Shown piece after piece: positions 24,500 through 51,792 of a stretch of 64,000 nucleotides of DNA. The notes below the pieces were generated by a model, which saw nothing but the letters and a program-made list of their open reading frames with translations, did not search any database and was not told the origin of the DNA. Where the stretch lies: assembly GCA_963665315.1 (NCBI GenBank), contig OY762274.1, forward strand, positions 3,162,133 to 3,226,132, in the 5' to 3' direction. Position numbers and translations under genes: made by a program. Source of the stretch: Pseudomonadales bacterium (GTDB taxonomy: Bacteria; Pseudomonadota; Gammaproteobacteria; Pseudomonadales; Pseudohongiellaceae). Every line of letters starts with the position of its first letter. Position 1 is the first letter of the stretch.

Positions 24500-24549
24500 G
24501 GTGGGGGCGGGGGCCGGGGCAAGCCCGCGCCCCCGGGAACGATCGTCCG

Positions 24550-29445: not shown

Positions 29446-29466
29446 GGCCGACGCGCGCGCACGAGC

Positions 29467-29682
29467 CCTGCGGTCCTGCGGTCCTGCGGTCCTGCGGTCC
29501 TGCGGTCCTGCGGTCCTGCGGTCCTGCGGTCCTGCGGTCCTGCGATCCTGCGATCCTGCGGTCCTGCGGTCCTGCGGTCCTGCGGTCCTGCGGTCCTGCG
29601 GTCCTGCGGTCCTGCGGTCCTGCGGTCCTGCGGTCCTGCGGTCCTGCGGTCCTGCGGTCCTGCGGTCCTGCGGTCCTGCGGT
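29467..29682. repeat. 8-bp microsatellite (CCTGCGGT)27, i.e. (ACCGCAGG)n on the coding strand
   Basis: 27 head-to-tail units counted, 25 perfect and 2 with G>A (29539-29554). The tract ends 21 nt upstream of ATG 29445 of the giant surface protein. All reading frames are open through the tract. Confidence 0.97.
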
Positions 29683-30083
29683 CAATCACACGATCGGATT
29701 CCCTCGCGGTTCCCGTCAAGCCCAACATCGAACCGATCCCGAAAAAATCCCGCGACCCGCGGTCCAAAATCCTCATGCGATCTCCCCCCGTCCAAATCCA
29801 TAATCGCCGGCCGCGAAGCGACCGCCGCCGGCCCGAATCCGGGCAGCCCGACGAAATTTGGACGGAATCTACAACATCTCTTCCCGCAAGACAATCGAAA
29901 ATTCGCCCCGCTTGACCGAGCTGGCCCGAGGCTCCGTTCACCATCGCTTTCTTATTGGAAAACGCTTTGCGGCCGGTTCAGGCCTTTTCGAGCGGAAGCG
30001 AACCATGTGTCGCCCGACAATGTAATCGGAATGCGATTCTGCTAATTTCGGGAGGAACTCCGGAGAGGCGGTACATATTCCTG

Positions 30084-31915: not shown

Positions 31916-32860
31916 ATGTCACGCATATCGCAAAAGCTGATTATCGTCGGCGCCCTGCTCGCGGCAGGCGGCGCCTCCCAGGCCCAGAACAGTTGGGTCG
32001 ACCTGGCGGTGCATAATTTCGGCGCTCCCATCAACACCATGTGGGCGGAAGGCGAACTGACCTTTGCCGACGACGGCACCATGGTCTATTGCAGCGCGCG
32101 GCAGGACATGGCCGTGGCGCCGGGTGACCCGAAAGATCTCTATATCGCAACTTTCGACCAGGAATCAGGCACCTGGAACACTCCGGTGAACATGGGCATT
32201 CCGGTCAATGCGGCGCCCGCCACCGATGTCGACCCCTTGCGCAAGGGCGACGACCGCGAACCCTGGATCACCGCCGACGGCAACACCATCTATTTCAAGT
32301 CGGACCGGCTGGCGACGACAAGCCCGCAAAACAACAACGACGTGTTCGTGACCCGCAAGGTGAACGGTCAATGGACCGAACCCGAACTCGTCGGGTATCC
32401 GATCAGCACCGACGAAGGCGACGAACATTGCCCGGCGATCTTGCAGGACGGCGAAACGCTGTGCTTCGCTTCAAGGCGGGCCGGCGGATTCGGCGGCTCC
32501 GACATCTATTGTTCGCGCCAGGACGCGGCCGGCAACTGGATGGAGCCGGTCAACCAGGGTCCGAACATCAATACCGAAGGCGAGGAATTCCACTTCAGCC
32601 AGGCCGAAGACGGTACGGTCTATTTCACTTCCAGCCGGCCGGGCGGATACGGCGGCATGGACATCTGGGGCGCGGCGGCGGCAGGCACAGACAGTTGGGG
32701 GCCGGCTTTCAATCTCGGTCCGCAAGTCAATACCGCGGGCGCGGACATGTGTCCGGCGTTTCCGCCCGGGCAGGACTCCATTACCTGGTTTTCGACGCGC
32801 TCCGACAACAGCCTGGGAAATATCGATATTTTCTGGACCAGCAAAGTAAACGTGGATTGA
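31916..32860 (+). CDS. Secreted PD40/TolB-like beta-propeller repeat protein
   Basis: Signal peptide followed by repeated PD40-type blocks (WITADGNTIYFKSDR; LCFASRRAGGFGGSDIYCS; VYFTSSRPGGYGGMDIW). An AGGAGA RBS is upstream. Confidence 0.75.
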   Translation: MSRISQKLIIVGALLAAGGASQAQNSWVDLAVHNFGAPINTMWAEGELTFADDGTMVYCSARQDMAVAPGDPKDLYIATFDQESGTWNTPVNMGIPVNAAPATDVDPLRKGDDREPWITADGNTIYFKSDRLATTSPQNNNDVFVTRKVNGQWTEPELVGYPISTDEGDEHCPAILQDGETLCFASRRAGGFGGSDIYCSRQDAAGNWMEPVNQGPNINTEGEEFHFSQAEDGTVYFTSSRPGGYGGMDIWGAAAAGTDSWGPAFNLGPQVNTAGADMCPAFPPGQDSITWFSTRSDNSLGNIDIFWTSKVNVD

Positions 32861-32965: not shown

Positions 32966-34114
32966 TTGACCTCTGACACTTCCACAACCGCCAGTTCCGC
33001 CGCGGCGCCGGTTCTCGTTACCGGCGCCGCCGGGCACGTGGGCGCCAATCTCGTGCGCCGGCTGCTCGACGACGGCGTCCGGGTTCGGGTGCTGTTGCGG
33101 CAGGAAGACAATAATCAGGCGCTCGAAGGCCTCGACGTCGAGCGCGTCTGGGCGGATATCCGCTATCTCGACGCCACCCGGCGCGCGCTTGAGGGCTGCC
33201 GGGGGGTGTATCACGTCGCCGCCAAAGTTTCGACGATCGACGGCAATAACGCCCATCGCCGGGAAATTTACGAATGCAACGTGGTCGGCACCCGCAACGT
33301 GCTGCAGGCCGCGCGCGAGACCGAAGCCGGTCGTGTCGTGGTCACCGGTTCCTTCAGTGCGGTGGGGCACGACCTCGACGATCCGTCGGCGCCGAGCGAC
33401 GAAACGATGCAGTTCTATCCCATGGAACGCACGATGCCCTACGAGCGCAGCAAGATTCTTACCGAACATGAGTGCCTGCGCGCCGTTGCGATGGGTCAGG
33501 ATGTTATTGTCGCGACCTGCTGCGCGGTCGTGGGCGGGGCCGATTACCTGCCCTCCCGTCTCGGCAGAACCATGTGCGACTACACCGACGGCAAGCTGCG
33601 CGCCTATGTCGACGGCGGCTTCGAGTTCGTCGCCGCGCGGGATATCGTCGAAGGCCATGTGCTCTGCATGGAGAAAGGGCGTACAGGCGAGAAATACATT
33701 TTCAGTTCCGAATACAAGACCATTTCCGACATCGTCGACCTGTACGAGGAGGTCTCGGGAGTTCCCCGCCCGAATCGGCGGATTCCGGCCAACCTGATGT
33801 ATCCGTTTTCGGAAGTTGCGAGCTTTTACCTCAGCCGCTTTCATCCGGACTTTCCGCAACGATTCACGCCCGGGGCCATCCGCCTGTTGAAAAAACGCCG
33901 GCATGCGAATCTTGCCAAAGCGAAAAACGAACTCGGCTACCGGCCTACGACCATCCGCGCCGCCGTGCACCAGGCGTACGCGTTTCACTATCACGAGCGC
34001 AAGGCGATCGCCAATCCGAACGCAAAACCGCCATGTGAAGAATCGGCAAGCCGGATCGAAAACCCGGTGCGCGAGCAGGATATTCAAGTTACCGCGGGGG
34101 AAAGTTCAGCATGA
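32966..34114 (+). CDS. NAD(P)-dependent SDR (3-beta-HSD / dihydroflavonol-reductase-like); candidate SdmB-like sterol C-4 demethylation reductase
   Basis: VLVTGAAGHVGANLVRRL Rossmann motif and an extended-SDR YxxxK context (PYERSKILTE). TTG start. The stop overlaps the Rieske gene ATG (ATGA at 34111-34114). The functional call comes from the operon context with sterol genes. Confidence 0.7.
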   Translation: MTSDTSTTASSAAAPVLVTGAAGHVGANLVRRLLDDGVRVRVLLRQEDNNQALEGLDVERVWADIRYLDATRRALEGCRGVYHVAAKVSTIDGNNAHRREIYECNVVGTRNVLQAARETEAGRVVVTGSFSAVGHDLDDPSAPSDETMQFYPMERTMPYERSKILTEHECLRAVAMGQDVIVATCCAVVGGADYLPSRLGRTMCDYTDGKLRAYVDGGFEFVAARDIVEGHVLCMEKGRTGEKYIFSSEYKTISDIVDLYEEVSGVPRPNRRIPANLMYPFSEVASFYLSRFHPDFPQRFTPGAIRLLKKRRHANLAKAKNELGYRPTTIRAAVHQAYAFHYHERKAIANPNAKPPCEESASRIENPVREQDIQVTAGESSA

Positions 34115-35208
34115 ATCAGGCAGTGAGCCCACCTCCAGGCTTCAATGAGGCTTCGGGATTGCGCCAGAAATCCCGGGCCGCCGGCATGGACCCGGATTAC
34201 TGGTACGCGGTGGAAGAAGTGCGCAACGTGAAACCGGGCTCGGTCGTCGAGGCAGTTTTCTGGAAACGCTCGATTGCGCTGTACCGGACGGCCGACGGCG
34301 AATTTCACGCGGTCGAGAATCGCTGCGCCCATCGCCAGCTCAAGCTTTCGCTCGGGCAAGTGGAAGGCTGCCGCCTGGTCTGCGGCTATCATGGCTGGGA
34401 ATATGACGAACAGGGCCGTGTCGTCGGCATCCCCGACCTGTTCGGCCGCAAGGAATTGCCCGAAATCTCGATCAGGCGCTACCCGGTACAGGTCCGCTAC
34501 GGCCTGGTCTGGTTGTTCCCGGGCAATCCCGAACTCGCGGAACAGCGCCGGATTCCCGATATTCCGGAGATCGAGGGGCCCGACCGCTGGGCATGCGTGC
34601 CGATCACATTTACCTGTACGGCCCACCATTCGATGATAATCGACAATGTCAGTGACTTTTCCCACGCGTTCCTGCACCGCAAATACCGCCCCTTCGACGG
34701 CGCCACGCTGACCCAGTGTGAAACCAGGGGTGACGATGTGCATCTCGCCTACGACACGAAGGTCGGACGCGGGCCCATCTCCGGATTGTTCGTCGATCAC
34801 GGACGGCTGAACACCAACCACATCGAACTTTGCTACCAGTATCCGTACCAATGGTCGAACACCGACGACGAAATCAAACATTGGCTGTTCGTGCTGCCCA
34901 TCGACGAACGCACTACCCGGACGTTTTTCCTGTTTTATTTCAAGTCGCTGAAATTTCCGTTGCTGCCGGTGCGCTTCCCGCGATTCGCCATGACCGCGGT
35001 AATGAAAGTATCGAATCGTCTGCTGATCGGCCCCCTGCTCGATGAGGACCGGGTCGCCGTGGAGGCGGAGCAACTCGGGTATGAGCAGCACTGGGACGCG
35101 CCCTCCATCGAGGTGAATCCGGTAGTGAGCGCCTTCCAGCGAGTGACCGTGCGCAAGTGGCAGGAATACCTGGCGCGGGAAGCGGAGTCCGGCAATGCCG
35201 CCGCCTGA
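34111..35208 (+). CDS. Rieske [2Fe-2S] non-haem-iron oxygenase; candidate SdmA-like sterol C-4 methyl oxidase
   Basis: Rieske motif CAHRQLKLSLG...CGYHGWEYD (CxH-N17-CxxH), followed by a catalytic domain with the DNVSDFSHAFLH mononuclear iron block. The gene is translationally coupled on both sides. Confidence 0.75.
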   Translation: MNQAVSPPPGFNEASGLRQKSRAAGMDPDYWYAVEEVRNVKPGSVVEAVFWKRSIALYRTADGEFHAVENRCAHRQLKLSLGQVEGCRLVCGYHGWEYDEQGRVVGIPDLFGRKELPEISIRRYPVQVRYGLVWLFPGNPELAEQRRIPDIPEIEGPDRWACVPITFTCTAHHSMIIDNVSDFSHAFLHRKYRPFDGATLTQCETRGDDVHLAYDTKVGRGPISGLFVDHGRLNTNHIELCYQYPYQWSNTDDEIKHWLFVLPIDERTTRTFFLFYFKSLKFPLLPVRFPRFAMTAVMKVSNRLLIGPLLDEDRVAVEAEQLGYEQHWDAPSIEVNPVVSAFQRVTVRKWQEYLAREAESGNAAA

Positions 35209-36298
35209 CGCCGGGCTGGCGCCGATGACGCTCTCCGGCGATGCCCTGCTTGCAGCGGCGGTCATGCTGCTGGTTTTCCTCGTTGTCCTTTTTGCCGGTT
35301 CGATGTTCGTGCCTGGCCGCACGCTCGTTCTTGCCGACGCCGAAGCCGGCAACAGGGAGTTCAGGCTGAACGGATTCGCCCTGTTCCTGCTGGTCGTGGC
35401 GTTGGCCGCCATTTGCCAGTTTTTTGGCTGGTTCTCGCTTTCGGCGCTGCATTCGCATTTTGCCGCGCTGTTCGTGATGGCGAATGTTTTTTCCTTCGTG
35501 CTTTCCGGCTGGCTGTACCGGCGGGGCGAGGGCGCGCCCAACGCGCCGCAAGGATTTTGGCGTGGCTACTTCATGGGCCGGGAACTCAACCCCACCCTGC
35601 TGGGAGTCGATCTGAAAATGTTCAGTTATCGTCCTTCCCTCATTGGCCTGGCGCTGCTCAATATCTCGTTCGCCGTCGCGCAATACGAGACCTACGGCCA
35701 GTTGACGCTGGGGATGGCGCTCTACCAGGCCTTCACGTTTGCCTATGTGTTCAACTATTTTCAGTTCGAGCAAGGCATGATCCACACTTGGGACATCATC
35801 AGCGAGCGCTTCGGCTGCATGCTCGTCTGGGGCGATTACGCGCTCGTGCCGTTCTTCTATTGCCTGGCCGGATGGTGGCTGGTCGACGCAACCGGGCCGG
35901 CATTGCCGCCCCTGGCCGCTGCCGGTGTCGTTATGTTGTTCGTTTTCGGTTTCTGGCTGTTTCGCGGCGCCAACGAGCAGAAGCACCGCTTCAAACAGGA
36001 CCCTGATTCCATGATTTGGGGCAAACCCGCGGAAGCGCTCGACGGCCGTCTGCTCGTTTCGGGATTCTGGGGCATCGGGCGGCATCTCAACTACACCGGC
36101 GAAATCTGCATCTATCTTTCCTTTGCGCTGACCACGGGCTTCGTTTCCTGGGCGCCTTTCCTGTTGCCGGCGTGGCTGGCCGGATTGCTGGTGCAAAGAT
36201 CGCGCCGCGACGAGCGACGCTGCCGCGCCAAGTACGGCGAGCTTTGGAATCGCTATACGCAGCGGGTGAGATTCGTGATGGCGCCTTTCATTTACTGA
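35195..36298 (+). CDS. ERG4/ERG24-family sterol reductase (most likely C-14 reductase)
   Basis: Polytopic membrane protein. The C-terminal signature LLVSGFWGIGRHLNYTGEI...LLVQRSRRDERRCRAKYGELWNRYTQRV...APFIY matches the sterol reductase family consensus (GxxRHxNYxG ... RDxxxCxxKYG ... PxIY). Confidence 0.88.
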   Translation: MPPPDAGLAPMTLSGDALLAAAVMLLVFLVVLFAGSMFVPGRTLVLADAEAGNREFRLNGFALFLLVVALAAICQFFGWFSLSALHSHFAALFVMANVFSFVLSGWLYRRGEGAPNAPQGFWRGYFMGRELNPTLLGVDLKMFSYRPSLIGLALLNISFAVAQYETYGQLTLGMALYQAFTFAYVFNYFQFEQGMIHTWDIISERFGCMLVWGDYALVPFFYCLAGWWLVDATGPALPPLAAAGVVMLFVFGFWLFRGANEQKHRFKQDPDSMIWGKPAEALDGRLLVSGFWGIGRHLNYTGEICIYLSFALTTGFVSWAPFLLPAWLAGLLVQRSRRDERRCRAKYGELWNRYTQRVRFVMAPFIY

Positions 36299-36306
36299 GG
36301 ATTTCG

Positions 36307-37698
36307 ATGGCGCTTCAATCCCACAATGCGGAGGTTTCGGCGGAGGCGGCCGGGGCCGTCCCCGAGATGAGCGGAGGCTTGCCCCTGCTCGGACATCTGC
36401 GGGAATTCCAGCGGGACCCTGTCGCGTTCCTGTGCCGCGGCCGGCGCGAGTGCGGCGAGCTTTTCCAGTTCGGGATCGGTCCGCGCAAATTCGTCGTGTT
36501 TGCCGGGCCCGAAGCCCACCATGCTTACTTCAAGGCTCCGGAAGAAACCCTCGACGCCAAGTCGGTGTATCAGTTTACCGTGCCCATTTTCGGGCGCGGC
36601 GTAGCCTACGACGTTTCTTCCGAACTCATGACCGAGCAACTCGGATTCCTGTTTCCCGCGCTCAGGGAATCGGCGATGCGGCGCTATGTCCGCATCATGT
36701 TCGAGGAAGCGGAAAGCTTTTCCGACTCGCTTGGACAGGAGGGGGAGTTCGACCTGCCCCATGCGATGAACGAACTCACGGTGAACATCGCCAGCCGCTG
36801 CTTTCTCGGCGAGGAAATCCGCAACGAAGTGGACTCCGGATTCGCCGAGGCGTATCACGATCTTCAGAACGGCATCAACACGCTCGGCTTCTTTTTCCCG
36901 CGGCTGCCGACTCCGGCGCACCTGACCCGCGACCGGGCGCGGCGAAAAATTACCGAAATCTTCAGTGGCATCATGCGCGAAAGGCGGCGTACGGGCGCCC
37001 AATCCGAAGATTTCATGCAAACGCTCATGGAGGCCCAATACAAGGACGGACGGCCCTTAAGCGACAATGAGGTTACGGGACTGCTGTTGACGACCTTGTT
37101 CGCGGGCCAGCATACCAGCGCGGTGCTCGCGTCCTGGACCGGGCTCGAATTACACCGGGAGCTTCCGTATCTCGACCGGGTGCGAGATGAAATGCGAGAG
37201 ATCTACGACGAGGAAGGATCGCTGAGCTATGCGGGCCTGAAGCAGCAACCGCTACTGGAAAACGCGGTCCGCGAATGCGAACGGCTGCATCCGCCACTGA
37301 TCATTCTGATTCGCAAGGCGCTCAGGCCGCTGACTTATGGCGATTACACCGTACCGGCCGGCGCGCTGGCCGTGGTGTCACCGGCGCTTTCACATCTCTT
37401 GCCGAATGTTTTCGCAAACCCGGAAAAGTTCAATCCGGACCGTTTCGCTCCGCCTGCCAGCGAGGAAAAGCAACACCCCCACGCCCTGATCGGCTTCGGC
37501 GGCGGCAAACACTGCTGCATGGGCAAGAACTTTGCCATCCTGCAGATCAAGGCAATCTGGACCGTGCCGCTGGATCGATTCGAATTCAAACTCGACACCC
37601 CGTTTCCCGCACCGAATTATGGAAGCTGGGTGACAGGACCCAGGCTGCCATGCCGACTTCGCTATCGACGCCGCTCGCAAGCGAGCATTTTCCACTGA
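36307..37698 (+). CDS. cyp51: Cytochrome P450 sterol 14-alpha-demethylase
   Basis: CYP51 B'-helix signature YQFTVPIFGRGVAYDV, I-helix LFAGQHTS and haem-thiolate loop FGGGKHCCMGKNFA. 463 aa. ATG at 36307, 8 nt after the reductase stop. Confidence 0.9.
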   Translation: MALQSHNAEVSAEAAGAVPEMSGGLPLLGHLREFQRDPVAFLCRGRRECGELFQFGIGPRKFVVFAGPEAHHAYFKAPEETLDAKSVYQFTVPIFGRGVAYDVSSELMTEQLGFLFPALRESAMRRYVRIMFEEAESFSDSLGQEGEFDLPHAMNELTVNIASRCFLGEEIRNEVDSGFAEAYHDLQNGINTLGFFFPRLPTPAHLTRDRARRKITEIFSGIMRERRRTGAQSEDFMQTLMEAQYKDGRPLSDNEVTGLLLTTLFAGQHTSAVLASWTGLELHRELPYLDRVRDEMREIYDEEGSLSYAGLKQQPLLENAVRECERLHPPLIILIRKALRPLTYGDYTVPAGALAVVSPALSHLLPNVFANPEKFNPDRFAPPASEEKQHPHALIGFGGGKHCCMGKNFAILQIKAIWTVPLDRFEFKLDTPFPAPNYGSWVTGPRLPCRLRYRRRSQASIFH

Positions 37699-40600
37699 GC
37701 GCCACAGGGCTGCCACGCTACGATATAGCCATCGTCGGCGGGGGCCCGGTAGGCAGCTTGTGCGCGCTGGCCCATGCCCGCAAGGGCGCCAGGGTTGCCC
37801 TGCTCGAAGCGAATCCCAAGGCGGCGCAACGACTTGCCGGAGAATGGCTGCATCCTCCGGCGGTGAGGATGCTGCAAGGCGTCGGCGTCAATCTCGATGG
37901 GCGGCCGGGATTTTCCCCCGGCAAGGGATTCGTCGTCTTTCCGGAGGACCGATCGGAATCCATCCTGTTGCCCTACCCGGAAGACTCCGCGGGCCTGGTA
38001 TTCGAACATTCCGCACTCGTCTCCTGCTTGCACGAAGCGGTCGAGAGCGAGCCTGGAATCGAAATTTATCGCCACGCGCGAGCGCGGGCGATCGAAGACG
38101 AAGGAATCGTTTTCAGCTTCAATGGCGCTGAACGTCTGCTGCAGGCCGGGCGGATCGTCGGCGCCGACGGCCGGGCCTCGATCGTGCGGCAATCGCTGGG
38201 CTTGCGGACCGAGCGCATGACCTGCTCGCGCATGGTCGGGGTCGTGGTCGAAGGTGTGGAACTGCAGCACGAAGAATTCGGCTATGTCGTACTCGGCCCA
38301 CCCGGACCCATACTCACCGTGCCGCTGGGCGAGGGCCGCGTCCGCATCATAGCCGACATGCCGCTGGACCTCTGGACGCCGCGGGACCGGGTCGGCGTGT
38401 TGCTGGAATCTTACGCCGGCTACTTGCCGGAGGACCTCAGGTCCGCGTTCGTAGATGCGATCCGGTCGGGAAAATACCAGGCTGCCGCCAACGAGTTAAG
38501 GCCGCGAATGACTTACGGCTCCTCGCGCCGCGTACTTATCGGCGATGCGGCAGGTCATTACCATCCGATGACCGCGGCCGGGATGACCCTCGGTTTCGCC
38601 GACGCTCTTGCCCTTGCCGAGGGCGGAGATTTCCGGAAATTCGCGAACCGCAGGCTGAAAGAAACCAGGGCTCCACAACTTCTCGCCATGGGGCTGTATG
38701 AAGTGTTCCGCGATCACCGGCTGGAGTCGTCGGTGTTACGGCAGGCCGTTTACCGGAATTGGCGGGCCAGCAAACTGGTCCGGGCCCGGACCATGCGCCT
38801 GCTTGCCTGCGAGGACTCTTCCGTAACGCGGCTCGGCACTGCTTTCAGCGTGACCGTGGCGACCGGATTCGCCGGAGAACTCTGGCGGCGCAACGGCATT
38901 CTCACCCGGCGCCGGGCGCAAGTCATGATTCGTACGCTGGCGGCTCGGCTCAACTGGCTGGTGCGGGGCGTTCGCGAACTGGAAAAGGCGCACGGTTCGA
39001 GCGGCGCCGATGAACAGTCCGCCCTGGACAAGCTTTCCGGCGCCTTCCTGATTTCGATGCAGGAGCACTCCGACACCGCGGCGCCTGTTCGTCCGAACGA
39101 TCTGGCCCCGGTCGAAGCGGGTACGGGGCTGGACCTTGCCGCGAAGCGCTTGCTGGATCTGCAGCGCGAAGACGGCGCCTGGGAAGGCGAGATGACCTGG
39201 TGCCCCATGCTTGCCGCGCAATACGTGCTGCTTCACTACGTCATCGGCCGGCAAATCGAACCCGGCCGTCGCCGGCTGCTGTTGCGCCAGTTCGAACGAA
39301 CTCGCCTCGAAGGAGGACTCTGGGGCCTGCACGAGCACGCGCGGGACAGCCTGTTCGTCACGACCCTGGTTTACGTCGCTGCCAGACTGCTCGAAGTCGG
39401 GCCGGACGACCCCTTGATCAGGCCGGCCCGCGAATTCATGCAAAAAGAAGGGGTCCTGGGCATCCCGAGTTGGGGCAAGTTCTGGCTGGCGCTGCTGAAT
39501 CTCTACGACTGGCGCGGGGTGAACGCCGTGCTGCCTGAATTGTGGCGCCTGCCGCGGCGATTGCCGTTGCATCCTTCAAACTGGTACTGCCACACCCGAC
39601 TCATCTACATGGCGATGGCAACCATATATTCATGCCGGTTCCAGCTTCCGGTGAATCCCGTAATCGAAGCCTTGCGCGAAGAACTTTTCCCGGAAGGCTT
39701 TGACGGAATCGATTTCACTGCCGGCCGCAATCGCCTGCGCAAGGCCGATCTGTTCGCCCGGCCCGGCATATGGCTGCGTGCCGGTTACGCTTTGACAGGG
39801 ATCTACGAAAAAATTCACAGCAAGCGCCTGCGCGCCCATTGCCGCAAAGAACTGGTTGAACGCATTCGCTGGGAACTGCAAAGTTCCAGCCACACCAGTA
39901 TTTCCCCGGTCAGTGGATTTCTCAACATTCTCTCCCTGTGGCTGTGCGACCCCGACGATGCCGACTTGCACAAGGCACTGGACAGCCTCGAAGGCTGGGT
40001 CTGGGAAGACGAGGAAAACGGAACACGGATAACCGGTGCGCGCAGCGCATCCTGGGATACCGGATTCGCCCTGCAAGCGCTGTCGACGATTCCGGGCCGC
40101 GACGATGTGCGTCAAGCCTTGCGCAAGGGAGCAGACTTTCTTCGCGATCAACAGATTTCCGTCAGCTTCGACGGCTTTCGCGAGGCTTACCGCAACGACC
40201 CCAGGGGGGGCTGGTGTTTTGCCGGCGAATGGCATGGCTGGCCCGTAACGGATTGCACCGCGGAGGCGGTAGTCGGACTTGTCGCCGTGGATACCGAAGA
40301 AGTGGACGAAGCGAGCCTCGGCGAGGCGATCGGGTTCATGTTGCGCGGCCAGAACCGCGACGGGGGCTTCGGCAGTTATGAAGCGAAGCGCTCAAGAATT
40401 GGCCTGGAGTGGCTCAATCCGGCGGAAATGTTCGGCGAATCGATGACCGAGCATTCTTTTGTCGAATGCACCGCCTCCTGTCTGGCGGCGCTGGCGGCGT
40501 GCAAGCGGCGCTTGCCGCGGGTCGTCGATGAAACAGCGCTCGAATCCATGTCCCGGGCCGACGCATGGCTGCGGCGGACCCAGGCGAACGACGGTAGCTG

Positions 40601-41054
40601 GCGCGGCGTCTGGGGCGTGCAATTCATTTATGGCGTCCTGTTCGGCATAAGGGGCCTGCTTGCCGGAGGCGCGGGCCCCGGTGACCCTGCCTTGCGCCTT
40701 GCCTGTCACTGGTTGCTTGAGCGCCAACGAAGCGACGGCGGCTGGGGCGAACATCATAGCGGCTGCCTGAGCGGCAAATATGTCGCGCATGAGCAAAGTC
40801 AGGTCATCCAGACCGCCTGGGCGCTGATCGCCCTGCTTGAGGCGGGCGACTCACATTGGTCCGCAATTTCGCGCGGAGCACGATTTCTGCTCGACGCACA
40901 GGACGGGGAGGGGGGCTGGCCGAACCAGGACATGGCCGGAGTGTTCTTCCGTACCGCGCTGCTGGATTACGAACTGTACCGGCAGTATTTTCCCCTGCAC
41001 GCCCTCGGCCTCTTTGAACGTCGGCGGCGCGCCAGACTGGCGGAAAACGACTAG
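37650..41054 (+). CDS. Single ORF fusing squalene monooxygenase (N-terminal, about 450-480 aa) to oxidosqualene cyclase (C-terminal, about 620 aa)
   Basis: N-terminal half: DIAIVGGGPVGSLCALAHARKG FAD fold, RLAGEWLHPPA (squalene epoxidase R(I/L)xGExLQPGG block) and GDAAGHYHPMTAAGM. C-terminal half: repeated QW-type motifs (REDGAWEGE, NRDGGFGSY, ANDGSWRG, RSDGGWGE, DGEGGWPN), SWDTGFALQAL, and the catalytic VTDCTAEA motif of oxidosqualene cyclases (squalene-hopene cyclases have DxDDTA). There is no stop codon between the two halves in the given sequence. Confidence 0.85.
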   Translation: MPTSLSTPLASEHFPLSATGLPRYDIAIVGGGPVGSLCALAHARKGARVALLEANPKAAQRLAGEWLHPPAVRMLQGVGVNLDGRPGFSPGKGFVVFPEDRSESILLPYPEDSAGLVFEHSALVSCLHEAVESEPGIEIYRHARARAIEDEGIVFSFNGAERLLQAGRIVGADGRASIVRQSLGLRTERMTCSRMVGVVVEGVELQHEEFGYVVLGPPGPILTVPLGEGRVRIIADMPLDLWTPRDRVGVLLESYAGYLPEDLRSAFVDAIRSGKYQAAANELRPRMTYGSSRRVLIGDAAGHYHPMTAAGMTLGFADALALAEGGDFRKFANRRLKETRAPQLLAMGLYEVFRDHRLESSVLRQAVYRNWRASKLVRARTMRLLACEDSSVTRLGTAFSVTVATGFAGELWRRNGILTRRRAQVMIRTLAARLNWLVRGVRELEKAHGSSGADEQSALDKLSGAFLISMQEHSDTAAPVRPNDLAPVEAGTGLDLAAKRLLDLQREDGAWEGEMTWCPMLAAQYVLLHYVIGRQIEPGRRRLLLRQFERTRLEGGLWGLHEHARDSLFVTTLVYVAARLLEVGPDDPLIRPAREFMQKEGVLGIPSWGKFWLALLNLYDWRGVNAVLPELWRLPRRLPLHPSNWYCHTRLIYMAMATIYSCRFQLPVNPVIEALREELFPEGFDGIDFTAGRNRLRKADLFARPGIWLRAGYALTGIYEKIHSKRLRAHCRKELVERIRWELQSSSHTSISPVSGFLNILSLWLCDPDDADLHKALDSLEGWVWEDEENGTRITGARSASWDTGFALQALSTIPGRDDVRQALRKGADFLRDQQISVSFDGFREAYRNDPRGGWCFAGEWHGWPVTDCTAEAVVGLVAVDTEEVDEASLGEAIGFMLRGQNRDGGFGSYEAKRSRIGLEWLNPAEMFGESMTEHSFVECTASCLAALAACKRRLPRVVDETALESMSRADAWLRRTQANDGSWRGVWGVQFIYGVLFGIRGLLAGGAGPGDPALRLACHWLLERQRSDGGWGEHHSGCLSGKYVAHEQSQVIQTAWALIALLEAGDSHWSAISRGARFLLDAQDGEGGWPNQDMAGVFFRTALLDYELYRQYFPLHALGLFERRRRARLAEND

Positions 41055-42100
41055 TCCGGACTTGTCGGCAGTCCTTTCGCGGCCCGGCGAAAGAGCCAGC
41101 GTAATCCTCGATCGTTTTGCAACATGAGATTCGTTGCAAACAAGGTGACCCGCACGGAATTCCGGGAAATTTTTACCTGATCGGATGCGGTAAATTCCGG
41201 GTTGTGCTGGATCTTCCGCAAAGTCAGCACCGCCAGACCGAGAGCCCACAGGCAGAATCGGCGCATGCCGGCTTCCCTGGCGGGAAGATGGCAAGTGAAC
41301 TCCATCGCATTCCTCAAGTGTCTGTGAGCGATTGCAATCAGTGTACGCAGACCGCTCTGGAATTCGCTGGTCCGGTGATTCTCTCCCAGGTTTTCCAGCG
41401 AGAGCCTGCCATTGTCGAACACCGAGCGCGGCAACCAGCAGGCGCCCCGCTCACGATCGGCCCAGATGTCCTTCAATATATTGGTCATTTGCAGCCCCTG
41501 GCCGAAAGAAACGGCGAGGGATCGCAACTGCGGACGATTTTCCTCGAGTTCCGGACATTGAATGCAGAACAGATCGACCAGCATCTCGCCCGCCACCCCG
41601 GCGACCGCATAGCAATATGCGTCGAGTTCCGGCAAATCGCGCAGTCCCGCAAGGCTGCTGTTGCGCTGGAATTTCGGCATGTCGATGCACATGACGGACA
41701 CGCAGCGCTCGAGAATCCGGCGCTCGGCTTCGGTAAACGAATGGGTAACGCCGACTACCCGATCCGCGTTGCGCATCAGTTCGCGTTCGGCCGGCGGAAT
41801 TTCCGGGGACAGCAGCGGGGTCACTTGAGCGGAAAAGGCGCTCGCGTCCGTTTGAGCCTTGACCGTGGTCAGAAAACGCTCGAGATTCGCCTCTTTCTCC
41901 GCGAAGTCCAGGCGAGGATCGTCCTCGATCGTATCCGCGATGCGGCACAGCAAATAGGCATTGGTCACAACCAACGCAAGACGGCTCGGCAGAGCCGGTA
42001 TGGTCAGCGCAAAAGTCCGGGAAACGCCAGGCAGAATGGCTGCCTGGTATTGCTGGTTTTCTTCCAGCGCGTCCCTTTTGTTTCTGGTCAAGTCAAGCAA
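41051..42100 (-). CDS. Squalene synthase (farnesyl-diphosphate farnesyltransferase, eukaryote-like SQS type)
   Basis: 349 aa. LPGVSRTFALTIPALP and YLLCRIADTIEDD (first Asp-rich motif), with a second motif region YCYAVAGVAG. TTG start. The stop overlaps the stop of the SQMO-OSC gene (convergent, 4 nt). Confidence 0.85.
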   Translation of the reverse strand: MLDLTRNKRDALEENQQYQAAILPGVSRTFALTIPALPSRLALVVTNAYLLCRIADTIEDDPRLDFAEKEANLERFLTTVKAQTDASAFSAQVTPLLSPEIPPAERELMRNADRVVGVTHSFTEAERRILERCVSVMCIDMPKFQRNSSLAGLRDLPELDAYCYAVAGVAGEMLVDLFCIQCPELEENRPQLRSLAVSFGQGLQMTNILKDIWADRERGACWLPRSVFDNGRLSLENLGENHRTSEFQSGLRTLIAIAHRHLRNAMEFTCHLPAREAGMRRFCLWALGLAVLTLRKIQHNPEFTASDQVKISRNSVRVTLFATNLMLQNDRGLRWLFRRAAKGLPTSPD

Positions 42101-42224
42101 CGTCCATTACCTGCTTGCTCACGCTTCTTGCATGGTTGCCGAGCATATTACCGCAATTCGTCTCGTTCACGTTAACTGCCTAACCTGTTACAGTGCGGGC
42201 CACGGAGCCAGCAGGAGGGCGGCG

Positions 42225-43598
42225 ATGCCAAGAAAAATAGCAATAATCGGCGCAGGAGTTTCCGGGCTCGGAGTCGCCTGGGCCTTGCATCGAAATCCCG
42301 ACCGATTTGATTTCCGGCTGTACGAGACACAGGCCCAGGTCGGCGGCAACGCCGTTACCGCCGATATGCCCCAGGCGGACGGGTCGTCGATCCCCTTCGA
42401 TATTTCGGTCACCGCCTGCATTCCCACGGTGTATCACCACATTCTGCTGCTGATGCGGCAGCTTGGTGTCGAGCTGGTCGATACGAAATTCAGCTATAGC
42501 GTGAAATATCACGGCGAGATCTATGCACACGACCTCGACACCGAAATCGCCCGGCAGTTGCAGGAGGAAATCGACAGATTCCAGAAGTTGCTGAAACGCA
42601 TGAAATGGTTCGGCGCGCTCAACCGGACCCGGTCGAAATTTCTCAACGCGCTCAACCCCTTCAATTACCTCAGCATGGGCACGGTGCTGAATTTCGGTCG
42701 ATATTCCGGAGGCTTCAGGTACAAGGTGCTCAAACCCATGTTCGTCAACTTCCTGATGGCGACGAACGTGTTCGACATGCCGGCTTCGCTGTTCGCCCGC
42801 TACCTGGAATTCTTCGACATCGTCAATGCAACTCCGATGCAGACCTGGGAAGGCGGCACGCGCAACATCTACGAAAGGCTGACGGCGTCCTTCCGCGACA
42901 GAATTTATCTTTCCCGGCCGGTGCGCAAGGTGATCCGGCGGGAATCCGGCGTGGACGTAGTGGACGAGAACGGCGCTGCCGAGACCTTCGACGACGTGGT
43001 GTTCGCCTGCAACGCCAACCAGACACTGATGACGCTCGACAAACCGGGGTTTTTCGAGACCTGGCTGCTGTCGTCAATCCGCTATGAGAGCGAGTTGCAC
43101 AATCACGCCATCGTCCACTCGGACGCTTCCCTGCTGCCGGAAAACGAGGCGAAGCCCCTGGACACCCGCAGCAATCACATCGAGCAATACGCCGCCCGGC
43201 CGGACAACTACGAAATCACCTACATCATGCACAACCAGCAGCCCTGGGCGAAGCGGTCCGACAAACCCTGCCTGGTGACCTATAACGCGATCAGCCGCAT
43301 AGACGAAAGCAAGATCGTCAAGCGCTGGTGGTTCCAGCACGTCGTCCATGACGTGCGGCATATCGCGCTGCTCGTCCACCTGTTCCGCTTCATTCAGGGC
43401 AGGCGGCGGAGCTGGCATTGCGGTGCCCATACGCTCGTCAACAGCCAGGAGACCTGCTTCGTGACCGGCCTGGTCACGGCGCGGCAACTCGGCGCGGACT
43501 ATCCCTTCGACGACGAGGAATGCCGCAAGTGGTTCAACTTCTACGGCCGCATGATGTACGGCTGGCGTTTCAGGCGAGCGCGTTCTCGAACAGGTTGA
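42225..43598 (+). CDS. FAD/NAD(P)-binding amine-oxidase-like oxidoreductase (COG2907-like)
   Basis: KIAIIGAGVSGLGVAWAL dinucleotide fold followed by LYETQAQVGGNA (GG motif). An AGGAGG RBS lies at 42212-42217. The gene is divergent from the squalene synthase gene. The precise function is unknown to me. Confidence 0.75.
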   Translation: MPRKIAIIGAGVSGLGVAWALHRNPDRFDFRLYETQAQVGGNAVTADMPQADGSSIPFDISVTACIPTVYHHILLLMRQLGVELVDTKFSYSVKYHGEIYAHDLDTEIARQLQEEIDRFQKLLKRMKWFGALNRTRSKFLNALNPFNYLSMGTVLNFGRYSGGFRYKVLKPMFVNFLMATNVFDMPASLFARYLEFFDIVNATPMQTWEGGTRNIYERLTASFRDRIYLSRPVRKVIRRESGVDVVDENGAAETFDDVVFACNANQTLMTLDKPGFFETWLLSSIRYESELHNHAIVHSDASLLPENEAKPLDTRSNHIEQYAARPDNYEITYIMHNQQPWAKRSDKPCLVTYNAISRIDESKIVKRWWFQHVVHDVRHIALLVHLFRFIQGRRRSWHCGAHTLVNSQETCFVTGLVTARQLGADYPFDDEECRKWFNFYGRMMYGWRFRRARSRTG

Positions 43599-44448: not shown

Positions 44449-44634
44449 CTTGTTTTCCTCAAAGCCGGAATCAGAATCGTCGTTGTACCCCAAAAGCCGA
44501 AACAATATCCACCTGTTGTGATTTGTGGCCTCGAACCGTCGGTGGCGGATAGGGGGTTGCGGCGTCCGCCACACACATGGGACACCCATCGTTTTGTGGC
44601 ATGATTCATGGGACAGTCATCGGAGGGTAATGCC

Positions 44635-45753
44635 ATGTTTGATTCGACTCGTCGGCGATTTCTGCAGACCGGGGCGGTCGCGGGGCTCAGTCTTGCCGGG
44701 CGTCCCCTGCTGGCCCAACAAAGCACGGTTGCAACGGTCGTCGGAACCGGTGTCGCCGGCTTTGAGCCTGAGCCGAGCGGGGGCGCGGAGGCAACGGCCG
44801 CTCCGATCAACAATCCTTACGGTGTGGTGTTCGGTCCGGACAGTGCCTTGTATTTTTGCGAAGTCGACACGGGCCGCACGCGCCGCGTGAATCTCGAAAC
44901 CAATCGGCTTTCCACGGTTGCCGGCAATGGCGACAAGGGCTGGGAAGCGGAATCGCGCGTGCCAGCCGAGACGCCGTTTTCGGCCCCGCACGAGATTCGC
45001 TGGGATAGCGGCAACCTTTTCATTGTCGAGCGCGATTCGCACACGGTGCGGCGCATCGACGGGCGTCTCGGGCTTGTTACCACGCTCGCGGGCAACGGCG
45101 AGCCGGGCTATGCCGGAGACGGGCGGCCGGCGGTGCTGTCCCAGTTGCGCCAGCCGCACAGCATCGCTTTCGATCCGGACGGCAACCTGTTGATCTGCGA
45201 TATCGGCAACAGCCGCCTGCGCCGGGTAGACCGCCAGACGGGGGTGATCAGCACGATTTCGGGCACTGGAGAACGGGAACGGACGCCGGACAGTGGTCCG
45301 ATGACGGGTACGCCATTGATGGGACCGCGCTCGATCGACATCGCGCCGGACGGCATGGCTTATCTGGTGCTGCGAGAAGGCAACGCGGTGTACCGGCTTG
45401 ACCTGGCCGGCGACCGTCTCGAGCGTATTGCCGGCACGGGCGAACGGGGGTATGGCGGCGATGGTGCGGCAGCGCTCGATTGCACGTTCAACGGGCCGAA
45501 GGGCATCGCTTATTCTAGCCGCGACAATTCGCTCTATATCGTCGATACGGAAAATCATGTGATTCGCCGGATGTCGCTGACGTCGGGGTTAGTCGACACG
45601 GTGCTCGGCACGGGCGAGCGCGGCGACGGGCCGGACGGGGATCCGCTGGGGTGCATGCTGGATCGGCCGCACGGGGTTTGTATTCGCAACGGGGTGGTTT
45701 ACGTCACTGACAGTGAAAGTCACCGAATTCGGGCGATTTACGGGTTGATGTGA
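44635..45753 (+). CDS. Tat-exported NHL-repeat beta-propeller protein
   Basis: MFDSTRRRFLQTGAVAGLSLAG twin-arginine leader. Repeated NHL-type units follow (PYGVVFGPDSALYFCE, PHSIAFDPDGNLLICDIGNSRLRRV, PKGIAYSSRDNSLYIVDTENHVIRRM, PHGVCIRNGVVYVTDSESHRIRAI). Confidence 0.85.
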   Translation: MFDSTRRRFLQTGAVAGLSLAGRPLLAQQSTVATVVGTGVAGFEPEPSGGAEATAAPINNPYGVVFGPDSALYFCEVDTGRTRRVNLETNRLSTVAGNGDKGWEAESRVPAETPFSAPHEIRWDSGNLFIVERDSHTVRRIDGRLGLVTTLAGNGEPGYAGDGRPAVLSQLRQPHSIAFDPDGNLLICDIGNSRLRRVDRQTGVISTISGTGERERTPDSGPMTGTPLMGPRSIDIAPDGMAYLVLREGNAVYRLDLAGDRLERIAGTGERGYGGDGAAALDCTFNGPKGIAYSSRDNSLYIVDTENHVIRRMSLTSGLVDTVLGTGERGDGPDGDPLGCMLDRPHGVCIRNGVVYVTDSESHRIRAIYGLM

Positions 45754-47866: not shown

Positions 47867-48940
47867 TCAAGGCGCCACGGGAACGAATTGTTGCACGCGC
47901 CGCCCTTCCTGTTCGGCGACATAGACGTTGCCGCGGGAATCCACGGCGATGCCGTGGGGCAGTTCGAACTGCCCCGGGTAGCGTCCGGGTCCGGCGCCGA
48001 AACTCGCCAGTTTTTTGCCGGTGTCGCGGTCGAGCACGTCGACCATGACGCTGTTCTGGTTGACTACATAGATGTGGCGCTGCGCCGCGTCTGGAGAAAA
48101 GCCGAGTACGACGGCAGTGCCGCGCGCGCCGCTTGCGCGGCCGGCCGGATCACTCATGGGCGAAAAGACGACGGAAATATTGCGCACGAATTCGCCTTGA
48201 CGGTTAAAGACCTGGATTCGATCCGCGCGGCGGTCGCAAACGTAAACGAGCCCGTCATCGGAAAGCCGAATGCAATGCGGCAGTTCGATGATGTCCGCCT
48301 CGCCCGGTTCGCGGCGCAGGCGCCATTGCCGCAGAAAATTGCCTTCGCGGTCCAGCACCGCGATGCGGGCATTGCCGCCGGGCAGTTCGCCGTCCGCCAC
48401 ATAGATATCGCCATTGCCGTCGGTATCGATGGCCGAGGGCAGGAAGAATTGCGCGCTGTCGGAATTCAGCGGCTGGCCCTGGCGGCTGCCGTCGGATGAA
48501 TCGAAACGTCCGGATTCGCCGACTTGCAACAGCAGGCTGCCATCCGCTGGGTCGTATTTCTGAATATGACCGGTGGCCGCGGCGACGATCCAGAGATTAC
48601 CGTCGGCGTCCGCGTGACAATCGTGCAGCCGGCCGCCGAGCAATTCCGGATCGCCCCAGCCGCGCACGACTTCTCCTGCCGGATTCAGTTCGATGATGGG
48701 CGGGGCGAGCAAGGCGCCGTCGAGATCGTCCTCGACCACATTTTGCCGGTTAAGCAGATACACATGGTCGCGGTCGTCGACACACATGCCGCCCAGGCCG
48801 CCGGTCAGCCAGTTGCCGCCAAGAGGCGCCTGCGGCCAGGCCGGATTTACCCGGAATTCAAGCGGCTGCGCCAAAGCAGCCGCGGCCACGGCCGCCAGCA
48901 GCAGGCCAAGGGCCGTAGCGATGGTCCGGCAAATCCTCAA
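47867..48940 (-). CDS. Secreted NHL-repeat six-bladed beta-propeller protein
   Basis: Signal peptide MRICRTIATALGLLLAAVAAAALAQ. NHL-like units follow (for example GQFELPHGIAVDSRGNVYVAEQEGRRVQQF and LPHCIRLSDDGLVYVCDRRADRIQVF). Confidence 0.8.
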   Translation of the reverse strand: MRICRTIATALGLLLAAVAAAALAQPLEFRVNPAWPQAPLGGNWLTGGLGGMCVDDRDHVYLLNRQNVVEDDLDGALLAPPIIELNPAGEVVRGWGDPELLGGRLHDCHADADGNLWIVAAATGHIQKYDPADGSLLLQVGESGRFDSSDGSRQGQPLNSDSAQFFLPSAIDTDGNGDIYVADGELPGGNARIAVLDREGNFLRQWRLRREPGEADIIELPHCIRLSDDGLVYVCDRRADRIQVFNRQGEFVRNISVVFSPMSDPAGRASGARGTAVVLGFSPDAAQRHIYVVNQNSVMVDVLDRDTGKKLASFGAGPGRYPGQFELPHGIAVDSRGNVYVAEQEGRRVQQFVPVAP

Positions 48941-50361: not shown

Positions 50362-50484
50362 TTTCGCCCTCCGGGTAACAGGGCGATAGTAACAGAATCG
50401 CGCTGCGGCCAAAGTCGATTCGGAAATCGTAGACGCGACGGCCCGTGGCCGGGATAATTGCGCGCAATTCTGACGGAAACTGTC

Positions 50485-51792
50485 ATGGCCTCGAACAATT
50501 TTCGCTCTTTCACCGTCGTCGCAGTCATTATCGCCAACATGATAGGCACCGGGGTTTTCACCAGCCTCGGATTTCAGTTGGTGGATATCCGTTCGGGATT
50601 TGCCCTGATCATGTTGTGGGCCATCGGCGGATTGGTGGCGCTTGGCGGCGCGCTGACCTACGCCGAACTCGGTGCGGCCCTGCCTCGTTCCGGTGGAGAG
50701 TACAATCTGCTGCGCCGGATCTACCATCCTGCCGCGGGATTCGTCTCGGGCTGGATTTCTTCGACTATCGGCTTTGCCGGGCCCACGGCGCTCGGTGCGA
50801 TGACCTTCGCCGCTTACCTGTCATCAGTATTCCCCGACGGATTGAGCGACGGCATGCGCAAGCTGGTGGCCGCCGCGCTGGTGATTGTCATGGCCCTGGC
50901 CCACGCCACCAATCATCGCACCAGCGGCAGCACGCAACTGTTTTTCACCAATTTCAAGATCATCATTATCCTGGGATTCTGTCTGCTGGCGCTGCTCGTC
51001 ACCAATGATCCGCAGCCGGTGAATTTCCTTCCCCAGGCAAGCGACGGGGCGGTGCTGACGAGTTCCGTTTTCGCGGTGTCGCTGATCTATGTCAGCTTCG
51101 CATACTCCGGCTGGAACGCGGCCACCTATCTGAGCAGCGAAGTCGACAATCCGCAGCGGAACCTGCCCTGGATTCTGGTAACAGGGACCTCGATCGTTAC
51201 CGTCCTGTATGTATTGTTGAACTTCGTCTTCCTCTATGTCGCGCCGATGGATGCGATGGTGGGCCAGGTGGAAGTCGGCGCAATCGTCGCCGAAACCGCC
51301 CTGGGGACGGCCGGAGGCCAGTTTGTCGGCCTTGTGTTCGCCTTGCTGCTGATCTCGACCGTCAGCGCGATGACGATGGCCGGGCCACGGGTTATCCAAG
51401 TCATCGGCGAGGATTATCCGGCATTGGGATTTTTCGGCCGCACCAATCGCCACGGCATTCCCTCCGTTGCCATTTACACCCAGACCGCGGTCGCGCTGAC
51501 GTTTATTCTGACCTCGACCTTCGAGTCGGTGCTGGTCTTTGCCGGCTTCACCATGGCTCTTAACAGCTCGGCCGCGGTATTCGGCGTTTTTGTCTTGCGC
51601 CGGCGGCAACCGGACCTGCCGCGGCCCTATCGCACTTTCCTGTTTCCGCTTCCGCCCCTGATCTATTTGACGGTGATGGGCTGGACGCTCACTTTTACGC
51701 TGATCAACCGCCCGGTCGAGGCCCTGGGCTCGCTGGCGATCATCGGCAGCGGATTGCTGTTTTACTTCTTGACCTTGAGATTCCAGCGCTGA
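50485..51792 (+). CDS. APC-superfamily amino acid permease
   Basis: 435 aa, 12 predicted TM helices. N-terminal block VIIANMIGTGVFTSLGF and GGALTYAELGAALPRSGGEY are typical of APC transporters. Confidence 0.88.
   Translation: MASNNFRSFTVVAVIIANMIGTGVFTSLGFQLVDIRSGFALIMLWAIGGLVALGGALTYAELGAALPRSGGEYNLLRRIYHPAAGFVSGWISSTIGFAGPTALGAMTFAAYLSSVFPDGLSDGMRKLVAAALVIVMALAHATNHRTSGSTQLFFTNFKIIIILGFCLLALLVTNDPQPVNFLPQASDGAVLTSSVFAVSLIYVSFAYSGWNAATYLSSEVDNPQRNLPWILVTGTSIVTVLYVLLNFVFLYVAPMDAMVGQVEVGAIVAETALGTAGGQFVGLVFALLLISTVSAMTMAGPRVIQVIGEDYPALGFFGRTNRHGIPSVAIYTQTAVALTFILTSTFESVLVFAGFTMALNSSAAVFGVFVLRRRQPDLPRPYRTFLFPLPPLIYLTVMGWTLTFTLINRPVEALGSLAIIGSGLLFYFLTLRFQR

Follow-up and report, generated by a model that had tools for sequence, protein, structure and literature searches.

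A putative sterol biosynthesis operon of the sponge-symbiont type, and a conserved flavoprotein beside it, on a Pseudohongiella-like gammaproteobacterial chromosome

Does a gammaproteobacterium that shows no sign of methanotrophy carry a working sterol pathway, and what else travels with it? The question is raised by a 64,000-nucleotide stretch of contig OY762274.1 (positions 3,162,133 to 3,226,132; assembly GCA_963665315.1, Pseudomonadales bacterium), hereafter the window, in which an initial annotation made from the sequence alone had placed a compact cluster of sterol biosynthesis genes at 32966-43598. Our analysis suggests that these genes probably form a functional bacterial sterol operon, of the type known from sponge symbionts as the msb locus or 'clusters of steroid genes' (CSGs), on a Pseudohongiella-like gammaproteobacterial chromosome.

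Gene content was established from the listing of open reading frames (ORFs) and from Pfam scans of the window. Seven intact ORFs with their catalytic motifs kept fill 32966-43598, and all of the sterol genes named in the initial annotation are present as intact ORFs where it had located them; it described no gene in the last part of the interval (42101-43598), which in fact holds a gene for a 457-amino-acid flavin adenine dinucleotide (FAD) protein of the amine-oxidase fold. The features, with the evidence for each in brackets, are:

32966-34114, plus strand: extended short-chain dehydrogenase/reductase (SDR), SdmB-like, NAD(P)-dependent (Pfam/NCBIfam)
34111-35208, plus strand: Rieske [2Fe-2S]/VanA_C oxygenase, SdmA-like (Pfam/NCBIfam)
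35195-36298, plus strand: ERG4_ERG24 reductase, predicted ERG24-type membrane sterol Delta14-reductase (Pfam, solved structures)
36307-37698, plus strand: cytochrome P450, CYP51 sterol 14alpha-demethylase, 463 amino acids (solved structures, motifs)
37650-41054, plus strand: squalene monooxygenase-oxidosqualene cyclase fusion, 1134 amino acids (single ORF, Pfam)
41051-42100, minus strand: predicted squalene synthase, SQS_PSY family, FDFT1-like (Pfam, solved structures)
42101-42224, no strand: 124-nucleotide spacer between the divergent squalene synthase and amine-oxidase-fold genes (read from the sequence)
42225-43598, plus strand: LkcE-like FAD 'amine-oxidase'-fold protein, 457 amino acids (Pfam Amino_oxidase and NAD_binding_8)

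The five plus-strand genes are packed as tightly as had been claimed for a single operon, with junctions of -4, -14, +8 and -49 nucleotides along the series SDR, Rieske, ERG24, CYP51 and fusion, and the convergent placement of the squalene synthase, which the 3' end of the cyclase overlaps by 4 nucleotides, was likewise borne out. The 49-nucleotide overlap at 37650-37698, where CYP51 ends and the fusion begins, has counterparts in many related loci (designated here by L numbers), in which tblastn matches of the two proteins overlap by 37-46 nucleotides (e.g., L001, L003, L004 and L008); in the gene calls of L022 and L025 the overlap is just 4 nucleotides. Translational coupling across this overlap is possible. 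A bidirectional promoter might lie in the 42101-42224 spacer; a scan of 31-46 kb for consensus promoters and terminators returned fewer sites than shuffled controls, none of them at the expected positions and none in the spacer. Searches of the window for tRNAs and Rfam families found nothing.

The squalene monooxygenase and the oxidosqualene cyclase (OSC) had been assigned to 37650-41054 as two activities; the coordinates stand, and both activities belong to one fused 1134-amino-acid protein. The N-terminal FAD-dependent squalene monooxygenase spans residues ~24-460 (nucleotides ~37719-39030) and the C-terminal cyclase residues ~487-1125 (nucleotides ~39108-41024), with both sets of domains (Pfam FAD_binding_3, SE, SQHop_cyclase_N and SQHop_cyclase_C) in one frame and without an intervening stop. 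A database entry identical to the fusion over its whole sequence (P0001, 100% identity) is also called at 1134 amino acids, and at ~1130 amino acids the fusion recurs in at least 120 distinct 90%-identity clusters. Oxidosqualene may be channelled within such a naturally occurring fusion. The N-terminal half matches human SQLE (6C6N) with 84 bits, whereas the cyclase reaches 714 bits with the OSC model TIGR03463 (cutoff 851) against 254 bits with the hopene cyclase model TIGR01507, and 432 bits with human lanosterol synthase (1W6K) against 168 bits with squalene-hopene cyclase (SHC). It carries VTDCTAE at residue 866 and lacks DxDDTA. These scores, the retained DCTAE and the fused squalene epoxidase speak against a hopanoid-making SHC, one of the objections that the initial annotation had raised against itself. 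Another, that the contig is eukaryotic or a contaminant, is contradicted by the bacterial genes around the cluster (Kdo transferase, HlyD/C39-ABC exporter and HipA), by the overlapping genes and by collinearity with circular-chromosome-scale bacterial metagenome-assembled genomes (MAGs). The probability that either of these two holds is close to nil. In the alignment with 1W6K, GWPVTDCTAEA of the window faces GWIVSDCTAEA of the human enzyme, which puts Val at the position of human V453, where the residue separated lanosterol from cycloartenol producers without exception in the bacteria tested (PMC4919349).

The P450 is a CYP51 by all 56 of its best solved-structure matches. The top matches are the 'Cytochrome P450 51' chains 7jj1, 6mi0 and 6mcw (367 bits), which we take to be the CYP51 of Methylococcus capsulatus; at 463 amino acids, compared with 551 for the 6mcw chain, the window protein aligns to the P450 part only, without the fused ferredoxin domain. 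AGQHTS and FGGGKHCCMG are located at residues 266 and 397, but the B'-helix pattern YxxFxxPxFGxxVxYD given in the initial annotation has no match, the actual motif at residue 88 being YQFTVPIFGRGVAYD, which is one residue shorter. The other motifs that had been listed (AGQHTS, VTDCTAE without DxDDTA, GRHLNYTGE and RDERRCRAKYG) were all found, the last two in the reductase. That protein matches Pfam ERG4_ERG24 (PF01222) with 232 bits, against a cutoff of 27, and its best solved structure is the Delta(14)-sterol reductase 4QUV (229 bits), presumably a methanotroph enzyme. Delta14 regiospecificity is suggested by its pairing with CYP51.

Demethylation at C-4 would fall to the first two genes of the operon. 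The SDR matches Pfam Epimerase (116 bits) and 3Beta_HSD (68 bits), contains GAAGHVG and YERSK (motifs of the GxxGxxG and YxxxK types), and has SdmB (NF052578) as its top NCBIfam model, with 300.6 bits. The Rieske protein (Pfam Rieske, 77 bits; VanA_C, 53 bits) carries CxH...CxxH and the mononuclear-iron motif DxxHxxxxH, and its top NCBIfam model is the 4beta-methylsterol monooxygenase SdmA (NF052579), with 412.8 bits. Both scores lie below the 600-bit equivalog cutoffs, which were built on Methylococcales proteins. With these as the best models, we regard the Rieske protein as a putative SdmA-like sterol C-4 methyl oxidase and the SDR as its putative SdmB-like C-4 decarboxylase/3-ketoreductase partner. 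Homologs of the SDR are syntenic in L001-L019 (71-96% identity), and the ratio of nonsynonymous to synonymous substitution rates (dN/dS) is ~0.10 for the SDR and 0.08-0.13 for the Rieske protein. The label 'eukaryote-type' that the initial annotation gave to the cluster is thus apt only in part, given that C-4 demethylation would proceed via bacterial SdmAB and not via ERG25/26/27. SdmAB homologs differ in outcome, taking off a single C-4 methyl in methanotrophs but both of them in Calothrix (PMC10202945), so that the number lost here is unpredictable.

The putative squalene synthase matches Pfam SQS_PSY with 173 bits and contains the Asp-rich motifs DTIED and DIWAD; among the NCBIfam models it scores 89 bits with TIGR01559 (cutoff 287) and 70 bits with HpnD. 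It lies divergently beside an Amino_oxidase gene, and a similar pairing of SQS_PSY and Amino_oxidase genes is found in crtM-crtN pairs, which raises the possibility that the two genes form a C30 carotenoid pair of the CrtM/CrtN type and have no connection with the sterol genes. However, the synthase is nearer to the true squalene synthases of solved structure (7wgh, 68 bits; human, 47 bits) than to CrtM/dehydrosqualene synthase (25-29 bits), the flavoprotein gives no CrtI/CrtN or HpnE match at E<=1e-5 and has LkcE as its closest structure, and in L007, L022, L026 and L031 it also lies beside sterol genes without a synthase gene. We therefore reject the carotenoid pair, which we rate as highly improbable.

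Collectively, the enzymes of the proposed sterol operon would support a continuous route. The squalene synthase would condense two molecules of farnesyl diphosphate to squalene, the N-terminal FAD domain of the fusion would convert squalene to 2,3-oxidosqualene, and the cyclase domain, with the Asp of VTDCTAE as the acid, would form lanosterol. Loss of the 14alpha-methyl through CYP51 would yield a Delta8,14-diene, the ERG24-type reductase would saturate the Delta14 bond, and SdmA with SdmB would take off one or both of the C-4 methyls; we expect 4-methyl- or 4-desmethyl-cholesta-8,24-dienols at the end of the route. The order of the reactions, the products and the electron donors are what we infer from the gene set. 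Alkylation of the side chain is not expected because the squalene synthase here sits where many relatives have a sterol methyltransferase; the 64-kb window contains no gene for such a methyltransferase, and none for ERG2, an ERG3-like hydroxylase, a DHCR-type enzyme, a GPP34-P450 fusion or an MMPL protein.

All seven genes are under purifying selection, with dN/dS of 0.08-0.18 (Nei-Gojobori, against L001, L012 and L009), similar to or below the values of neighbouring genes. The GC content of the cluster and its GC content at third codon positions (GC3, 0.69-0.80) equal those of the flanks (GC3 0.73-0.77), so that the cluster appears to be a settled part of the genome, and a recent foreign island was rejected on this composition. 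The opposite impression, that of an island acquired horizontally of which only a defunct or decaying remnant is left, comes from L021 (OY762706.1), which is 97-99% identical to the window and lacks seven segments of 252-908 bp. These gaps lie at its positions ~6200-12700, corresponding to 33018-42443 of the window, all of them confined to the sterol genes and the gene of the flavoprotein; microhomology of 0-17 nucleotides is seen at the junctions, the reading frames are altered, and ~11 kb of flanking sequence is intact. The gaps may mean that the pathway is decaying in this particular strain, or they may be an artefact of assembly. With the seven window ORFs intact, their catalytic motifs kept and dN/dS as low as given above, and with assembly errors as a possible source of the L021 deletions, we consider a decaying remnant very unlikely.

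How widespread is this arrangement? The SdmB-SdmA-ERG24-CYP51-fusion block is kept in 19 of the 21 species-representative genomes, with 56-96% amino acid identity to the window, and the titles of the respective records include Pseudohongiella, other Pseudomonadales, Arenicellales, Rhodothermales, Bacteroidetes, Opitutales and Nitrospinaceae. Identity in this range far exceeds the expectation for vertical descent between phyla. The order ERG24-CYP51-cyclase on one strand is found also in L001-L010 and L012-L019. The gene that follows on the opposite strand is a squalene synthase in the Pseudohongiella-like group and in L009, and a sterol methyltransferase in L003, L004, L006, L014, L016, L018 and L025. 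The rarity that the initial annotation attributed to such clusters is therefore not upheld, considering the number of clusters of the fusion, the retention of the block in nearly all of these genomes and the publication of the layout in 2020-2023.

Several further genes were noticed around the relatives of the operon. A fusion of a GPP34 (GOLPH3-like) domain with a cytochrome P450, ~660-670 amino acids long, is located near the sterol clusters of L004, L011, L016, L018, L022, L025 and L026 (e.g., L026 11362-13380), often beside an MMPL transporter with a faint sterol-sensing match and a TP_0789-like protein; the window has no such fusion. At 14800-18233, L022 has three sterol methyltransferase genes in tandem. 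A conserved ORF of ~243 amino acids lies just downstream of the fused cyclase in L005, L007, L016 and L022 and may be another companion gene; there is no Pfam entry for its copies in L022-L024.

The layout of the window can be compared with several described systems. The msb locus (GenBank MT026193), reported in 2020 from a gammaproteobacterial symbiont of the sponge Melophlus sarasinorum (PMC7074536), has the same gene order, in a host that is likewise gammaproteobacterial and a sponge symbiont; the msbA oxidoreductase overlaps msbB upstream, as the SDR overlaps the Rieske gene, and msbE is a fused epoxidase-cyclase, as in the window. However, msb ends with the sterol methyltransferase msbF and has its squalene synthase on another scaffold, whereas the window has the squalene synthase in that place and no methyltransferase. 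The amine-oxidase-fold gene that accompanies the window cluster is not mentioned for msb (PMC7074536), the likeness between the two loci being one of published layout. The CSGs reported in 2022 span ten phyla, including Gammaproteobacteria, and occur in 115 of the 537 Ircinia MAGs, with evidence of horizontal transfer and of purifying selection (omega 0.13-0.26) (PMC9531527). As in the window, their ERG24-CYP51-LSS core is preceded on the same strand by 'DFR' and a hypothetical gene and is faced at the 3' end, on the opposite strand, by FDFT1 or a sterol methyltransferase (PMC9531527). One locus of the Ircinia dataset, L017, has the whole layout of the window, including the PD40, squalene synthase, amine-oxidase, DLH and NHL genes, at 82-94% amino acid identity. 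In that study the fusion was annotated only as LSS, SdmAB went unrecognised and the amine-oxidase-fold gene was not discussed (PMC9531527).

A scaffold from Aplysina aerophoba, reported in 2023, carries sdmB, sdmA, ERG24 and ERG11 together with one gene matched by both the ERG1 and the ERG7 query, as in the window (PMC10070321), and the Methods of that paper mention 'fused SMO/OSC homologs' (that is, squalene monooxygenase/oxidosqualene cyclase). The Aplysina and uncultured clusters contain one to three functional sterol methyltransferases (PMC10070321), in contrast to none in the 64 kb analysed here. Methylococcus capsulatus and the Methylococcales have SdmA/SdmB, CYP51, an ERG24-type reductase and a lanosterol-type cyclase in common with the window. 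In methanotrophs the epoxidase and the cyclase are separate proteins, and the scores of the window proteins fall under the Methylococcales equivalog cutoffs. Furthermore, the CYP51 of M. capsulatus is naturally fused to a ferredoxin (PMC7947880), which the window CYP51 is not. Calothrix sp. NIES-4105 and Enhygromyxa salina make sterols de novo with C-4 demethylation of the SdmAB type, as predicted for the window, and in Calothrix the genes form a single 21-kb cluster (PMC10202945). Their pathways include C-8 isomerisation, and that of E. salina has further steps to cholesterol and an SdmC reductase, whereas ERG2, ERG3 and DHCR-type genes are missing from the window. Literature searches on Pseudohongiella with sponge and sterol, and on fused epoxidase and lanosterol synthase in metagenomes, returned nothing relevant. 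The window therefore adds one more case to a cluster type in print since 2020. Its particular features are the convergent squalene synthase, which is also in that literature, and the flavoprotein gene next to it.

The msb work bears on the product as well, having proposed for the homologous locus a role in making a saponin aglycone (PMC7074536). By extension, the same enzymes in the window could lead to a specialised triterpenoid aglycone, e.g. that of a sarasinoside-like 14-nor-lanostane saponin, in place of a membrane sterol; the SDR and the Rieske protein might, as suggested in the msb study (PMC7074536), install other oxygenations, and the conserved neighbouring flavoprotein could be a tailoring enzyme of the natural product. 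Yet no glycosyltransferase/tailoring cluster is present in the 64 kb, the sole glycosyltransferase seen being the Kdo transferase, and the SDR and the Rieske protein score best to SdmB and SdmA. The occurrence of the cluster in about a fifth of the Ircinia symbiont MAGs and in ten phyla (PMC9531527) fits a general lipid better. On balance, a natural-product aglycone is unlikely, although less so than the other alternatives considered above.

Although we favour a functional sterol operon, several observations weigh against it or limit its reach. SdmA, SdmB, OSC and squalene synthase score 413, 301, 714 and 89 bits, under the respective cutoffs of 600, 600, 851 and 287, so that each appears to be a divergent relative and not an equivalog. 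No redox partner (ferredoxin or reductase) for CYP51 or SdmA is encoded in or near the cluster. Two of the three classical specificity positions of the cyclase, His 449 and Ala ~381, are not lanosterol-like, and because these positions are non-canonical, lanosterol as the product is a prediction only. If the L021 deletions are real, the pathway is dispensable in at least some strains. The functional call is a prediction from the genes, and the association of this genome with a sponge one from its relatives.

Which organism carries the operon? The window is collinear with a chromosome-level MAG of 'uncultured Pseudohongiella sp.' over ~22.3-48.3 kb (~26 kb), well past the cluster, at 92-94% DNA identity. 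In a scan of one genome per species, the closest relatives were in chromosome-level 'uncultured Pseudohongiella sp.' MAGs (91-92% amino acid identity), and a 'Pseudomonadales bacterium' genome reached 98% in its best segment. Pseudohongiella, which belongs to the Gammaproteobacteria (Pseudomonadales), is a heterotrophic genus and not a methanotroph; no methane-oxidation genes were seen in the 64-kb window, the remainder of which holds common bacterial genes, such as those for the Kdo transferase, the HlyD/C39-ABC exporter and HipA, and many genes for repeat proteins. Within the 64 kb, the non-methanotrophic gammaproteobacterial context that had been proposed is therefore supported. The exact sequences of the reductase, the fusion and the flavoprotein gave no record when looked up in a contig index. 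As for the sponge, the SB0675 bins (e.g., L013) and CAR3 bins among the related loci are presumably MAGs from sponge metagenomes. The isolate name of L017, jk18x34bins.22, fits the naming of the Ircinia MAGs of PMC9531527, several other loci being designated jk18x...bins, and the Pseudohongiellaceae are named among sponge-symbiont lineages (PMC8941161).

Sterol synthesis by bacteria bears on the use of sterane fossils as biomarkers of eukaryotes or sponges and on the persistence of symbionts in sponges. The picture drawn in 2020-2023 is not changed by the present locus, which contributes a complete case from a genome of chromosome scale, with the genes predicted to lead from farnesyl diphosphate to a demethylated sterol within ~9 kb. 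The presence of all steps in such a short segment makes the locus handy for heterologous expression.

Finally, what is the flavoprotein encoded at 42225-43598? Its start was set at the ATG at 42225, which is preceded by AGGAGG and agrees with homologs of 452-460 amino acids; a start at 41961 would stretch the ORF too far, across the synthase gene, and was ruled out by the same two observations. More than 120 clusters of homologs share 77-98% identity with the protein; the few with names come from MAGs of Gammaproteobacteria, Rhodospirillaceae and Defluviicoccus and bear generic protein names. Across lineages it is thus better conserved (77-98%) than the fused epoxidase-cyclase, for which identity outside the close Pseudohongiella-like group is 55-67%, and its dN/dS is ~0.09-0.11. 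The clade is isolated: a library of 1.84 billion 50%-identity representatives contains a single full-length relative at 59% identity, after which identity drops to 35-36%. We distinguished five arrangements of the flavoprotein gene with respect to sterol genes:

Arrangement 1, beside the synthase: Pseudohongiella-like group
Arrangement 2, directly after the cyclase: L005 and L007
Arrangement 3, near the methyltransferase: L018
Arrangement 4, divergent from SdmB: L022-24, and L031 (also with ERG2)
Arrangement 5, between the MMPL/TP_0789-like pair and the GPP34-P450 fusion with a methyltransferase: L026-28

In L029, L030 and L032 the flavoprotein gene is not adjacent to sterol genes, but the contig of L030 probably carries both the flavoprotein and a fused cyclase (P0081), both being recorded on a contig of 1,593,361 bp. 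At least 12 contigs were matched by size between the lists of flavoprotein and fused-cyclase matches, pointing to co-occurrence on the same contig.

The closest solved structure is LkcE (E=3e-27, ~24% identity), which a fold search likewise ranked best. In alignments with the deposited E64Q and R326Q mutant chains, however, the catalytic Glu64 and Arg326 of LkcE are replaced by Thr and Tyr, so that an amide oxidase/Mannich cyclase of the LkcE type was rejected, only the fold being held in common. The AlphaFold model is mediocre (mean predicted local distance difference test score, pLDDT, of 63, and <50 in the substrate domain), and the fold search with it confirmed the amine-oxidase fold only. 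Hydroxysqualene dehydroxylase (HpnE) was also discarded, there being no match to this family at E<=1e-5, and a search for amine oxidases in bacterial sterol clusters found no paper, in the literature library covered, that links such a protein to them. Related flavoproteins include fatty-acid double-bond isomerases, CrtI/CrtISO and retinol saturase, and their chemistry suggests desaturation, isomerisation or saturation, as a lead and not a test. Our guess from the gene neighbourhood is that the flavoprotein might act on the same lipid in one of these ways. Tentatively, with somewhat less than an even chance of being right, we propose that it is an undescribed enzyme that modifies sterols or squalene and accompanies sterol clusters of the sponge-symbiont type, most likely as a desaturase, a double-bond isomerase or a saturase. 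Were it to act on sterols, one of the unassigned steps of bacterial sterol tailoring would have its enzyme.

In addition to these genes, the window contains several features of separate interest. Repeat proteins surround the sterol cluster, namely a PD40/WD40-like, two NHL-repeat and one FG-GAP protein (31916-32860, 44608-45753, 47867-48940 and 48937-50727); repeat-containing 'eukaryotic-like proteins' are enriched in sponge symbionts (PMC9531527). The PD40, DLH and NHL genes, together with a gene for a 575-amino-acid protein without a significant Pfam match, are syntenic in the Pseudohongiella-like group only. A 5.5-kb stretch at 24437-29966 has a GC content of 70%, compared with ~62% in its flanks, and contains a single ORF of 1711 amino acids (24550-29685, minus strand; GC3 0.88) with Calx-beta and He_PIG domains. 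This stretch is missing from the otherwise collinear L001 and L021, so that a giant adhesin-like gene was inserted or deleted here in a strain-specific manner.

At 738-3371 (minus strand), an 877-amino-acid protein combines the PSCyt1, PSCyt2 (DUF1549) and PSD1 (DUF1553) domains, which are typical of proteins from Planctomycetes and Verrucomicrobia. The gene may have been horizontally acquired; a planctomycete origin of the DNA, which it had led us to suspect, was rejected on the basis of the long collinearity with the Pseudohongiella MAGs. Two HipA_C-domain kinases (494 and 599 amino acids) and an AAA_14/DUF4143 ATPase are encoded at 16726-18210, 53061-54233 and 57239-59038, and the GC content falls to 0.55-0.57 across 54-58 kb, which suggests a toxin-antitoxin or mobile region. 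At 12134-15465, the HlyD-family protein adjoins the C39-peptidase ABC transporter, and the two resemble a bacteriocin/peptide exporter pair.

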